In this document: piece after piece, positions 3,512 to 52,165 of the stretch
Position numbering within the stretch: position 1 is the stretch's first letter
Layout of the letters: each line of letters begins with the position of its first letter
Assembly: GCF_056712565.1 (NCBI RefSeq)
Contig: NZ_CM160072.1
Reading direction: 5' to 3' (one strand)
DNA length: 64,000 nucleotides
Position numbers and translations under genes: made by a program
Notes under the pieces: model-generated
The model's database searches: none
Told to the model about the DNA's origin: nothing
What the model saw: only the letters and a program-made list of their open reading frames with translations

Positions 3512-3585
3512 CTGCCGGATGCGATGCTGACGCATCTTATCCGGCCTACAGATTGCTGCGAAATCGTAGGCCGCATCCGGCAAAA
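3512..3585. repeat. REP / BIME palindromic unit pair
   Basis: gccggatgcg...cgcatcttatccggcctac and the inverse copy gtaggccgcatccggc, the typical E. coli REP consensus, in the lspA-fkpB spacer. Confidence 0.8.
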
Positions 3586-13589: not shown

Positions 13590-13690
13590 ACCGTGCGACC
13601 TGGTCGCTGGATGCGATGCTGGCGCATCTTATCCGGCCTACGGTTGCTTTACAGCCAGGTCGGATAAGGCGTTTATGCCGCATCCGACGA
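13590..13690. repeat. REP / BIME elements
   Basis: gatgcgatgctggcgcatcttatccggcctac and inverse ggataaggcgtttatgccgcatccgac. Confidence 0.75.
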
Positions 13691-16808: not shown

Positions 16809-18150
<1,342 letters not shown>

Positions 18151-37654: not shown

Positions 37655-37795
37655 TTCAACGTGTAGGCCTGATAAGACGCGGTAGGCCGGATAAGACGCG
37701 CCAGCGTCGCATCCGGCGAGCAGCATCAGACAATCGGCGCAAAATTGCCGGATGCGGCGTGAACGCCTTCTCCGGCCTACCGAACTTCGCCAGCG
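37655..37795. repeat. REP / BIME cluster
   Basis: gtaggcctgataagacgcggtaggccggataagacgcgccagcgtcgcatccggc ... gccggatgcggcgtgaacgccttctccggcctacc. Confidence 0.75.
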
Positions 37796-41542: not shown

Positions 41543-43894
41543 TCAAAATAGCCCAAGTTGCCCGGTCATAAGTGTAGCAAAATTATCCTCAATAAAAGGG
41601 AGTATTCCCTCCGCCACGGGTTGTAACTGGCGGGTCAGATAGTGTTCGTAATCCAGCGGTGAACGTTGGTAGTCCAGCGGCTCCGGGCCGTTGGTGGTCC
41701 ATACGTACTTAATGGTGCCGCGGTTCTGATATTGCAAGGGGCGACCGCGCTTATGGTTTTCTTCATCGGCAAGGCGAGCGGCGCGTACATGAGGCGGAAC
41801 ATTACGCTGATATTCGCTCAGCGGACGGCGAAGGCGTTTACGGTAAACCAGCCGCGTGTCCAGTTCGCCCGCCATCAGCTTGTCGATGGTTTCGCGCACG
41901 TATTCCTGATATGGCTCGTTGCGGAAGATGCGCAGGTAAAGCTCCTGCTGAAACTGCTGGGCCAGCGGCGTCCAGTCGGTGCGCACGGTTTCCAGCCCTT
42001 TAAACACCATCCGCTGTTTGTCGCCCTCCTGAATCAGTCCGGCGTAGCGCTTTTTGCTGCCGGTATCGGCCCCGCGAATGGTTGGCATCAGAAAACGGCA
42101 GAAATGGGTTTCATACTCCAGTTCCAGTGCGCTGGTCAGCCGTTGTTTTTGCAGCGTTTCCGCCCACCAGGCGTTAACGTGCTGCACCAGTGCACGACCG
42201 ATTTTCGCTGCTTCTTCTTCCGAATGTGCACCTTTCAGCCAGACAAACGTTGAGTCGGTATCGCCGTAGATAACATCATAGCCCTGCGCTTCAATCAAGG
42301 TTTTGGTTTGCCGCATGATCTGATGACCACGCATGGTGATCGACGATGCCAGGCGTGGATCGAAGAAACGGCAGGCGGTGGTGCCGAGCACACCATAAAA
42401 GGCATTCATAATGATCTTCAGCGCCTGCGAAAGCGGCTTATTACCCTGACGTTTGGCTTCATCGCGCCCGTGCCAGATGTTAGTCACAATCTCCGGCAGG
42501 CAATGTTTCTCCCGTGAGAACCAGGCATCGAGAAAACCTTCGGTACTGTGCTCTGGATCAGGCTGCGCCATGCCTTCCACCAGCCCGACGGGATCAATCA
42601 GAAAGGTGCGGATGATCGACGGGTACAGGCTTTTGTAGTCCAGCACCAGCACCGAATCATAAAGCCCAGGTCGCGAATCCATCACGTAGCCGCCAGGGCT
42701 GGCGTGCGGCGGCACTTCGCCGAGATTAGGCGCGACATAACCAGCGCGATGCATACGGGGAAAATAGAGATGACCAAACGCTGCCACCGAACCGCCGTGT
42801 CGATCTACCGGCAGGCCGTTCACCGTCGCCCGTTCGAGCAAAAACGGCATGATTTCAGTTTTGTGGAAGATCTGCGTCACCAGCTCGCAATCTTTCAGGT
42901 TATAAGTTGCCAGCGCAGGCTTATCTTCGGCGAAACGGCGGTCAATTTCGTCCATTCGATCCCACGGGTTATCGATAGATTTTCCTTCGCCTAATAACTC
43001 CTGAGCGACGGTTTCCAGCGAGAATGAAGAGAAATTCCAGAACGCGGATTTCAGCGCCTCGATACCGTCGATAATCAGTCGCCCTTTGGCCTGAGCAAAA
43101 AAGACGTCGTTTTTAAAGCCGTGCTCGCGCCACTCCAGCTCGCTGTTATCACGCCCCAGACGCAGCGGAATACGGTAACGCTCGGCATGTTTTTGCAGCA
43201 TTCGCAGATCGAACTGCACCACGTTCCAACCGATGATCACATCAGGATCATGAGTCGCAAACCAGGCGTTAAGTTTTTCCAGTAGCAGCGGGCGGCTGGC
43301 GACGTATTCCAGTTCAAAATCGAGCGCGGAGGCGTCGCCATTCTCTGGCCCCAGCATATAAACGATACGCTGCCCGCAACCTTCCAGGCCGATGCAGTAC
43401 AGCTCACCGTGGCGGGTGGTTTCAATATCAATAGAAACCCACTTGAGCGGCGGACGATAGTCGGGATGCGGTTTCAGACGGGCATTAACGATAGCGCCGT
43501 TGCGCATATCACCCTCGACCCACACTGGCGAGGTGATAAACCGCTCCATCAGATAGCGTTCTGGCGGGCGCACATCGGCCTCGTAGACGGTAACGCCACC
43601 TTCACGCAGGCGCTTTTCGTAATTCATCAACTGGCGATGGGCGCGACAGTAAAGGCCATACACCGGCTGGCGGTGAAAATCTTTTAACGCCAGCGGCGTC
43701 AGGCGAAAGCCTTGTTCACCCTGCAAAATATGCTGAGCGCGGGGAACATGATCGGCGGGAATAAATGCCACGGACTCTTGCGGCGCAAGCGTAACCTGCA
43801 ACGGCCCGTTGTCCGTTGCCAGCCAGAAGGAAACTTCGGTCCCTTGCGGGGTGTCCCGCCAGTGTCGGGTTAAGATAAAACCTGCCTGCGCCAC
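41543..43894 (-). CDS. polB: DNA polymerase II (B-family)
   Basis: 783-aa ORF with polymerase motifs including YGDTDS. Confidence 0.96.
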
Positions 43895-43968: not shown

Positions 43969-44664
43969 TTACTGCCCGTAATATGCCTTCGCGCCATGCT
44001 TACGCAGATAGTGTTTATCCAGTAGCGTTTGCTGCATATCCGGTAACTGCGGCGCTAACTGACGGCAGAATATACCCATATAAGCGACTTCTTCCAGCAC
44101 GATGGCGTTATGCACCGCATCTTCGGCATTTTTGCCCCATGCAAACGGGCCGTGAGAATGGACCAGCACGCCGGGCATTTGCGCTGCATCGATACCCTGT
44201 TTTTCGAAGGTTTCTACGATGACGTTACCGGTTTCCCACTCATATTCACCGTTGATTTCTGCGTCGGTCATTTTGCGGGTGCAGGGAATGGTGCCGTAGA
44301 AATAGTCGGCGTGGGTGGTACCGGTTGCTGGAATCGACTGACCCGCCTGCGCCCAGATGGTGGCGTGGCGCGAGTGTGTGTGCACAATGCCGCCAATAGA
44401 CGGGAATGCCTGATAGAGCAGCCGGTGAGTTGGCGTGTCGGAGGAGGGCTTTTTCGTACCTTCAACCACTTCACCGGTTTCGATGCTGACCACGACCATA
44501 TCGTCAGCGGTCATGGTGCTGTAGTCGACGCCGGAAGGTTTGATCACCAGGACGCCGCGCCCGCGATCAACGGCGCTGACATTGCCCCAGGTGAGCGTGA
44601 CCAGGTTGTGTTTTGGCAGCGCCAGGTTGGCTTCTAAGACCTGGCGTTTGAGATCTTCTAACAT
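43969..44664 (-). CDS. araD: L-ribulose-5-phosphate 4-epimerase
   Basis: 231-aa ORF; synteny in araBAD. Confidence 0.95.
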
Positions 44665-44667
44665 GTT

Positions 44668-44945
44668 GACTCCTTCGTGCCGGATGCGCTTTGCTTATCC
44701 GGCCTACAAAATCGCAGCGTGTAGGCCTGATAAGACGCGTCGGCGTCGCATCAGGCGGTGAATGCCGGATGCGCTTTGCTTATCCGGCCTACAAATCCGG
44801 AACGCGTAGGCCTGATAAGACGCGCCAGCGCCGCATCAGGCGGTGAATGCCGGATGCGCTTTGCTTATCCGGCCTACAAATCCGGAACGCGTAGGCCTGA
44901 TAAGACGCGTCAGCGTCGCATCAGGCGTTACATACCTGATGCGGC
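44668..44945. repeat. BIME array: three tandem copies of an approximately 96-bp REP-containing unit
   Basis: gccggatgcgctttgcttatccggcctacaaa ... gtaggcctgataagacgcg ... gcatcaggcggtgaat repeated three times between araD and araA. Confidence 0.85.
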
Positions 44946-44948
44946 TAC

Positions 44949-46451
44949 TTAGCGACGAAATCCGTAATACACTTCGTTCCAGCGCAGCGCGTCTTTAAAC
45001 GCTGGAAGGCGGGTATCGTTATCAATCACTGTGATTTCAATGTCGTGCATCTCGGCGAACTGGCGCATATCGTTGAGGTTCAGCGCATGGCTGAAGACGG
45101 TATGGTGCGCGCCACCGGCAAGGATCCACGCTTCGGAAGCGGTCGGCAGATCCGGTTGCGCTTTCCACAGCGCATTCGCCACCGGCAGTTTCGGCAGGGA
45201 GTGCGGTGTTTTCACCGTGTCGATGCAGTTAACCAGCAGACGGTAACGATCGCCGAGATCAATCAGGCTGGCGACAATGGCTGGACCGGTTTGAGTGTTG
45301 AAGATCAGGCGGGCAGGATCGTCTTTACCGCCAATACCGAGATGCTGAACGTCGAGGATCGGTTTCTCTTCCACAGCGATCGACGGACAGACTTCCAGCA
45401 TATGGGAGCCGAGTACCAGGTCATTACCTTTCTCGAAGTGATAGGTGTAGTCCTCCATAAAGGAGGTGCCGCCCTGCAGACCGGTTGACATCACCTTCAT
45501 GATGCGAAGCAGGGCGGCAGTTTTCCAGTCGCCTTCGCCCGCAAAGCCGTAGCCCTGCTGCATCAGACGCTGTACGGCCAGACCCGGAAGCTGTTTCAGG
45601 CCGTGCAAATCTTCAAAGGTAGTAGTGAAAGCGTGGAAGCCACCTTGTTCCAGGAAACGCTTCATCCCCAGCTCAATACGCGCCGCTTCCAGCACGTTCT
45701 GTCGTTTTTCGCCGTGGATTTGTGTGGCAGGTGTCATGGTGTAGCAGCTTTCGTACTCATCGACCAGCGCGTTAACATCGCCGTCGCTTATGGAGTTCAC
45801 CACCTGCACCAGATCGCCAACCGCCCAGGTATTGACGGAGAAACCAAACTTGATCTGTGCGGCAACTTTATCGCCATCGGTGACCGCTACTTCACGCATG
45901 TTATCGCCAAAACGGCAGACTTTCAGATGACGGGTATCCTGTTTAGAGACCGCCTGACGCATCCAGGAGCCAATACGCTCATGTGCTTGTTTATCCTGCC
46001 AGTGACCGGTAACAACGGCATGTTGCTGACGCATACGCGCGCCGATGAAGCCGAACTCGCGACCGCCATGCGCGGTCTGGTTCAGGTTCATAAAGTCCAT
46101 GTCGATGCTGTCCCACGGCAGCGCCGCGTTGAACTGGGTGTGGAATTGCAGCAACGGTTTGTTGAGCATGGTCAGGCCGTTGATCCACATTTTGGCCGGG
46201 GAGAAGGTGTGCAGCCACACCACCAGACCAGCGCAACGATCGTCGTAATTCGCGTCGCGGCAAATAGCGGTGATTTCATCCGGCGTGGTGCCCAGCGGTT
46301 TCAGCACCAGTTTGCAGGGCAACTTCGCTTCTGTATTCAGTGCATTAACAACGTGTTCCGCATGTTGCGTCACCTGGCGCAGAGTCTCCGGGCCGTAAAG
46401 ATGTTGGCTGCCAATTACAAACCACACTTCATAATTATCAAAAATCGTCAT
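44949..46451 (-). CDS. araA: L-arabinose isomerase
   Basis: 500-aa ORF; synteny. Confidence 0.96.
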
Positions 46452-46461
46452 TGTCGTGTCC

Positions 46462-48500
<2,039 letters not shown>

Positions 48501-52064: not shown

Positions 52065-52165
<101 letters not shown>

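Follow-up and report, generated by a model that had tools for sequence, protein, structure and literature searches.

We identify the tandem repeat between araA and araD as the araA–araD BIME-2, composed of three 85-bp units and the remnant of a fourth, and we put the probability of this reading, which together with its functional part explains the observations best as a whole, at about 0.9. The array was analysed in a 64,000-nt stretch of DNA (contig NZ_CM160072.1 of assembly GCF_056712565.1; hereafter the window), in which the spacer between the araA and araD gene bounds measures 284 bp (44665–44948). The spacer lies within the araBAD operon, and since the flanking ara genes are encoded on the minus strand, this strand is the mRNA sense. 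The original prediction of a three-unit tandem BIME array between araD and araA was borne out by Tandem Repeats Finder, by REP scans and by the published listing of BIME-2 elements in K-12; the extent it had given, 44668–44945, falls inside the spacer and is off by no more than about 10 nt on the araD side. As a discovery the locus matters little: this mobile-element-derived DNA is an ordinary, textbook BIME-2 that has already been catalogued and used experimentally, as a substrate in work on both gyrase and TnpA_REP.

Table 1 Features of the araA–araD spacer and of the neighbouring genes, with positions in the window.
Feature	Position	Strand	Remarks
polB	41543–43894		Downstream of araD; NCBIfam score far above cut-off
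araD	43969–44664	minus	TIGR00760, 446 bits; downstream of the array in the operon
araD ribosome-binding region	44665–44677	-	CGAAGGAGTCAAC before ATG; read from the sequence; kept in all Escherichia alleles
Tandem BIME-2 array	44678–44927	minus-strand transcript	Part of the araBAD mRNA; 2.9 copies, 85-bp unit
Short Z2-like REP, araD-proximal unit	44679–44707	+	Exact match; plus strand GCCGGATG...GGCCTAC, minus strand GTAG first
Tail-to-tail linker (S type), 13 nt, araD-proximal unit	44708–44720	.	Variant AAAATCGCAGCGT; unit dissection
Y-type REP, araD-proximal unit	44721–44756	-	Minus strand GCCTGATGCGACGCCGACGCGTCTTATCAGGCCTAC; pattern scan
Head-to-head linker (s type), 7 nt	44757–44763	.	GGTGAAT; unit dissection
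Short Z2-like REP, middle unit	44764–44792	+	Exact match
S linker, 13 nt, middle unit	44793–44805	.	Variant AAATCCGGAACGC; unit dissection
Y-type REP, middle unit	44806–44841	-	Pattern scan
s linker, 7 nt	44842–44848	.	GGTGAAT; unit dissection
Short Z2-like REP, araA-proximal unit	44849–44877	+	Exact match
S linker, 13 nt, araA-proximal unit	44878–44890	.	Variant AAATCCGGAACGC; unit dissection
Y-type REP, araA-proximal unit	44891–44926	-	Pattern scan
Alternative hairpin (remnant and head of first Y REP)	44917–44943	-	Inverted repeat; in MFE fold
Remnant of a further unit (half Z2 REP and s linker)	44927–44948	-	Directly after the araA stop codon
araA	44949–46451	minus	NF002795, 898 bits; upstream of the array in the operon
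araB	46462–48162		Upstream of araA in the operon; NCBIfam score far above cut-off

Tandem Repeats Finder reported a single array with a period of 85, 2.9 copies, 93% matches, 0% indels and a score of 444, the whole of it extragenic, within the spacer. A repeat search likewise recovered three copies, spaced 85 and 85 bp from start to start and 89–92% identical to a 96-nt reference. Each such 96-nt ‘copy’ comprises the 85 bp of the unit plus an 11-bp overlap into the next, which may be the source of the unit length of ~96 bp initially given and here corrected to 85 bp. The units had also been described as almost perfect repeats. This is fair for the pair of units nearer araA (2 differences over the 78 nt compared) and less so for the more divergent araD-proximal one, and the three units differ pairwise at 5.3 positions on average. 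Short open reading frames that span the array (for example 44691–44846 and 44758–44952) were set aside, being taken for by-products of the GC-rich repeats on the strand that is not transcribed.

Read in the direction of the mRNA, each unit consists of a 36-nt Y REP (GCCTGATGCGACGCTGACGCGTCTTATCAGGCCTAC), a 13-nt tail-to-tail linker, an inverted 29-nt short REP of Z2-like type (GTAGGCCGGATAAGCAAAGCGCATCCGGC) and a 7-nt head-to-head linker, in agreement with the REP pair originally proposed for every unit. The short REP GCCGGATGCGCTTTGCTTATCCGGCCTAC matched exactly at three places, with starts at 44679, 44764 and 44849, against a chance expectation of 0.00. The Y REPs were found with a variable-gap regular expression and together read GCCTGATGCG[A/G]CGC[T/C]G[A/G]CGCGTCTTATCAGGCCTAC (n = 3); in a pattern scan of the array, the six REPs alternated in strand. 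GTAGGCC is present in all six, and the cleavage motif GGCC↓TACA (arrow, cut; GGCCTACA) in the tails of all three short Z2-like REPs. At the downstream end, 5 nt separate the araD-proximal short REP from the araD Shine-Dalgarno sequence. At the upstream end, the 22-nt remnant is best seen in E. albertii and the cryptic clades, where the leader ..GCATCCGGCATTCAGCG corresponds to a unit junction.

We assigned the array to a class by the Gilson/Bachellier scheme as summarised by Ton-Hoang 2012, according to which BIME-2 elements combine z2 and y REPs in multiple tandem copies with a short S linker, s/l/r flanks and a strain-variable copy number, whereas a BIME-1 is a single y and z1 pair with a long L linker. 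The array REPs of Y type depart from the published Y REP GCCTGATGCGACGCTGGCGCGTCTTATCAGGCCTACG in loop bases only. Their orientation alternates with that of their partners, and the pairs recur in tandem with the period and copy number given above. The linkers, 13 nt tail-to-tail and 7 nt head-to-head, are short as expected, a match of length and position only, and the number of units is polymorphic (1, 2 or 3 in E. coli and 4 in a cryptic clade). As for the 29-nt partner, identity with Z1 was ruled out, the REP being clearly unlike the Z1 sequence TGCCGGATGCGGCGTAAACGCCTTATCCGGCCTAC; it aligns instead to the Z2 hairpin of naRNA4, with identical stem bases and an apex of 3 nt as opposed to 8 in the model. 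With an apex 5 nt shorter than that of the naRNA4 model, the partner is, to judge from this alignment, Z2-like rather than a textbook Z2. The array shares with BIME-1 (RIB/RIP) the inverted REP pair and the extragenic location, but BIME-1 is a single-copy Y and Z1 pair with a long conserved L linker that includes an IHF site, whereas the ara units are tandem, with a 13-nt linker and a partner other than Z1.

Window units align end to end with the Rfam model RF02564 (naRNA4), which represents the Z2–linker–Y unit of REP325, at 58.9 and 57.4 bits (E about 1e-9). Since the gathering threshold of this family is 59.5 bits, membership was rejected; on these scores the ara units are best described as paralogous BIME-2 units, not as naRNA4. 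In Rfam, naRNA4 was the only model matched, below threshold, and no riboswitch, sRNA or terminator family was hit.

The orthologous array of K-12 MG1655 is well documented. Table DS3 of Sutormin 2019 lists it as ‘BIMEs2 66566-66813 <araD-<araA’ with a length of 247 bp, an interval that corresponds to window positions 44680–44927; identity checks showed the Y REPs to agree with the published Y. The same study reports three gyrase cleavage sites in this element with ciprofloxacin and three with rifampicin plus ciprofloxacin; a note in its table adds ‘Espeli, Boccard 1997: 2 cuts’. BIME-2 elements as a class are enriched in gyrase cleavage sites, most of which fall in y REPs, and the signal is independent of transcription (Sutormin 2019). 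In addition, oligonucleotides derived from the MG1655 araD–A BIME (B315 and B316) serve as TnpA_REP substrates in vitro, where they are cut at the iREP site (GGCC↓TACA) and at a linker site and are recombined, with multiple REPs assembled (Ton-Hoang 2012). The features recognised by TnpA_REP, a 5′ GTAG and a mismatch in the stem, are present in the REPs of the window array. The RefSeq annotation of MG1655 has no repeat feature at the array position.

Like the window, K-12 has a 284-bp spacer that contains three 85-bp units and, past the araA stop codon, the remnant. The two alleles differ in their linkers: all three S linkers of K-12 are of the CGCTGCGATTTTG type and its s linker reads TTCAACG, whereas the window has two CGTTCCGGATTTG linkers and TTCACCG. 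One K-12 Y REP bears the tail variant TCTGGCC and thus does not contain an exact IS621 target. The stop-proximal hairpin, perfect in the window, is mismatched in K-12.

That the number of units varies between strains, as originally proposed, was confirmed in two evenly spaced samples (~118 complete genomes) of 5,440 matching E. coli records, in which we read the spans as alleles, the length classes of 684, 599 and 514 bp and of 1084, 999 and 914 bp corresponding to 3, 2 and 1 units. Three units, the allele of the window and of K-12, were found in 22 genomes of each sample (combined ~37%), two units in 12 and 14 (~22%), and one unit in 8 and 6 (~12%). A single unit with a 54-bp insert accounted for 16 genomes in either sample (~27%), and one genome in each had an array interrupted by IS621 (~2%). 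No four-unit allele occurred in either sample. The same copy number in all strains, which together with no effect on expression had been named beforehand as the mark of a routine feature, is therefore not what the sampled E. coli genomes have. Representative alleles read directly showed the length steps to be whole 85-bp units. Of 5,425 matching genomes, 117–174, the two with IS621 among them, had no place where 80% or more of the query was covered, and one genome gave no match at all; laboratory deletions of ara are one likely cause.

Alleles followed lineages: the sampled O157:H7 genomes have two units and K-12-like genomes three, and the insert allele occurs in E. coli W, O111:H8 and O39. 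The locus thus shows the behaviour of a stable marker, not of a hypermutable site. Beyond E. coli, two cryptic Escherichia lineages (araD DNA ~93% identical to the window) have four and three units, and E. albertii has one. Several private variants are common to more than one unit of the same array, namely a loop variant in both units of O157:H7 and two variants in SCPM-O-B-8794, each in 3–4 of its 4 units. These patterns point to duplication or conversion, specific to the lineage, after the lineages split. Comparing unit distances within arrays to those between strains suggested such lineage-specific duplication only in some cases (O157:H7, SCPM-O-B-8794 and K-12-like genomes); the window strain gave no such signal, its own units differing from one another as much as from those of other strains. 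The unit number changes by duplication or loss of whole 85-bp units, presumably through TnpA_REP-mediated strand exchange, replication slippage or unequal recombination.

The 54-bp insert is a GC-rich palindrome (…CCCTCACCCCGGCCCTCTCCCCAAAGGGGCGAGGGGG…) that adjoins the araD Shine-Dalgarno sequence; in NZ_CP050998.1 it occupies positions 311–364 of the retrieved locus L004, at the equivalent of window position ~44675. It belongs to a dispersed family found at a median of 12 and up to 26 places per genome, and it may resemble boxC elements.

IS621 is an IS110-family element with a bridge-RNA recombinase. Its natural target is the 11-mer ATCAGGCCTAC, of which the window contains five exact copies, three of them within the array (44721–44731, 44806–44816 and 44891–44901). 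In two clinical genomes (NZ_CM132959.1, locus L006, 3201–4763; NZ_CP195385.1, locus L007), both with K-12-like three-unit arrays, a 1279-bp IS621 copy resides inside the BIME, at GTAG↓GCCTGAT (arrow, junction) of the middle-unit Y REP. Such an insertion splits araA from araD and may exert polarity on araD.

As RNA, the spacer is predicted to be highly structured. Its transcript folds at -142.2 kcal/mol, as compared to -109.4 ± 5.4 for shuffled sequences (z = -6.1), and none of 100 shuffles folded as well. Individual hairpins reach -21.4 kcal/mol for the Y REP and -14.3 kcal/mol for the short REP; in the predicted folds, the former contains a 1x1 internal mismatch and the Z2-like hairpin an internal loop. 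Next to the araA stop codon, base-pairing between the remnant and the head of the first Y REP can yield an alternative hairpin, whose 9–10-bp stem begins 5 nt past the stop. Folded locally, the first 46 nt of the spacer adopt this hairpin plus the Y apical stem, at -22.4 kcal/mol; the K-12 variant, with its stem mismatch, reaches -17.7. Within 44300–45300, a search for promoters and terminators detected nothing resembling a sigma-70 promoter and, on either strand, no terminator-like site (a GC-rich hairpin followed by a T-run), and both an internal promoter for araD and an intrinsic terminator were rejected as candidates on this basis.

With respect to function, the array would act at two levels. 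On DNA, it would be a transcription-independent gyrase cleavage site, as the K-12 orthologue is. In the araBAD mRNA, its six or seven GC-rich hairpins would block 3′-to-5′ exonucleases and so stabilise the araB–araA segment, and they would partly attenuate transcription into araD. By analogy with REP325, we infer that a barrier to exonucleases together with a partial attenuator before araD would be the most likely role of the array in mRNA. An influence on mRNA stability and operon polarity, as first suggested, would be reasonable in view of other BIMEs. AraD loss is known to make arabinose toxic via L-ribulose-5-phosphate; any attenuation of araD must therefore be mild. Toxicity of L-ribulose-5-phosphate on arabinose has been assayed in the literature, where we found no expression, RNA 3′-end or half-life data for the araBAD REPs.

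The closest precedent is REP325 (yjdM–yjdN; naRNA1–6, Rfam RF02564 naRNA4), a BIME-2-type array inside the yjdMN operon that stabilises the upstream mRNA and attenuates the downstream gene. Its deletion lowers the upstream yjdM mRNA and raises the downstream yjdN mRNA about 8–10 fold, partly in a Rho-dependent manner. More generally, tandem gene pairs with intervening REPs show upstream-biased expression genome-wide, and REP effects are reported to depend on context and to vary across loci. Both REP325 and the ara array are made of tandem Y and Z2 pairs between co-oriented operon genes. REP325, however, has six 77-bp units and extra U motifs, a 13-nt head-to-head linker and a longer Z2 apex, whereas the ara array has three units, a head-to-head linker of 7 nt (6 nt shorter) and a setting in an inducible catabolic operon.

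Outside Escherichia, the position is occupied by other elements. None of 76 further Enterobacteriaceae loci has a tandem array; their spacers span 11–184 bp (the 11-bp spacer belonging to one Citrobacter locus). Some of these spacers hold one REP or two paired REPs, others two palindromes of the CCCTCTCC/GGAGAGGG type, and in Leclercia and relatives a hairpin precedes a T-run. Spacers nevertheless fold at -15 kcal/mol or below in 77 of 79 Enterobacteriaceae species loci, with z ≤ -2 in 74 (mononucleotide shuffles). A short REP abutting the araD ribosome-binding site (GTAGGCCGGAT[A/G]AGC[A/G]AAGCGC(C)ATCCGG) keeps its position in Escherichia, Salmonella and Citrobacter. A structured element is thus kept while its identity turns over, an indirect sign that structure at the araA–araD position matters.

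Several of these loci merit a separate remark. Pairs of CCCTCTCC/GGAGAGGG palindromes occupy the spacer in Klebsiella, Kluyvera and some Enterobacter. The 51-bp spacer of Leclercia, Silvania and relatives (L017, L030 and L053, among others) includes GGCCTGCCGCAGGGCGGGCC followed by TTTTTT, which by its sequence looks like an intrinsic terminator inside the operon. Upstream of the conserved short REP, the partner REP differs by genus, as seen in Salmonella enterica subsp. arizonae (L020) and in Citrobacter (L010 and L014). One contig titled ‘Chryseobacterium sp. 18061’ (CACSKA010000010.1, L048) encodes araA and an AraD of Enterobacteriaceae type (94% identity) and also has a REP pair of enterobacterial kind; contamination or a wrong label is the probable explanation.

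The main rival to the functional part of our reading holds the array to be purely selfish or neutral repeat DNA with no measurable effect on ara expression or on the chromosome. This is possible, though we consider it the less probable account. Alleles with one, two or three units and with the insert each make up 12–37% of sampled E. coli; that one, two and three units are all common is compatible with a nearly neutral copy number, and neutrality also fits a Citrobacter locus that manages with an 11-bp spacer and the variability of REP effects across loci. Against it stand the gyrase cleavage measured in vivo at the K-12 orthologue, the stable hairpin that nearly all Enterobacteriaceae loci have here although the type of element turns over, and the Z2-like REP retained beside the araD Shine-Dalgarno sequence in three genera. 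A different proposal concerns translation: the stop-proximal hairpin might stall ribosomes terminating on araA and thereby trigger mRNA cleavage and tmRNA tagging, so that the array would down-regulate araA. By the mechanism of Liang, Rudd and Deutscher 2015, hairpins less than 16 nt from a stop codon reportedly cause such stalling; the alternative hairpin, beginning 5 nt past the stop and present in the MFE fold, would comply. The canonical Y REP, however, begins 22 nt past the stop and so falls outside the rule, its stem (-21.4 kcal/mol alone) competes with the alternative hairpin at similar stability, and the latter carries a mismatch in K-12, so we judge this effect on araA unlikely.

Processing of the units into small RNAs of the naRNA4 kind, which would bind HU and condense the nucleoid, along the lines of the REP325 model of Qian 2015, appears highly improbable. 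The RF02564 matches do lie on the transcribed strand and near the threshold, but they stay below it, transcription of the array requires induction of the operon by arabinose, and neither deletion nor overexpression of REP325 changed nucleoid volume, nor were REP–REP contacts seen (Harris et al. 2026). As to the array itself, the original prediction had warned that the assembly might be locally compressed or expanded. A 255-bp tandem array does exceed a short read, but a three-copy state produced by repeat collapse or expansion can practically be discounted: independent complete genomes, among them E. coli ATCC 11775 (NZ_CP033092.2), are 100% identical to the window over stretches of 684 and 1084 bp, ~37% of the sampled genomes share its span, the MG1655 spacer is likewise 284 bp long, and the length classes, which follow lineages, are set apart by whole multiples of 85 bp.

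A more speculative extension of the attenuator role is that the unit number, or the 54-bp insert, might serve as a lineage-specific dial on the ratio of AraD to AraA and AraB, with more units bringing about more attenuation of araD and more stabilisation of araBA. We regard this as doubtful. Were it true, alleles with one to four units would differ in L-ribulose-5-phosphate accumulation and in fitness on arabinose, and the near-universal, non-homologous hairpins of Enterobacteriaceae would reflect selection for a set-point. The locus could in any event serve as a natural allelic series (0 to 4 units) for the question of whether REP arrays tune the ratios of genes in an operon. In practice, the locus is of modest use, as a stable length polymorphism in 85-bp steps for lineage tracking and as something to bear in mind when the ara locus is engineered or typed by PCR.

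The window contains eight further REPs, located at 3514–3549, 13606–13641, 18062–18142, 37682–37780 and 52078–52162. Two of these are singles, and the other six form three inverted pairs that may represent single-copy BIMEs.
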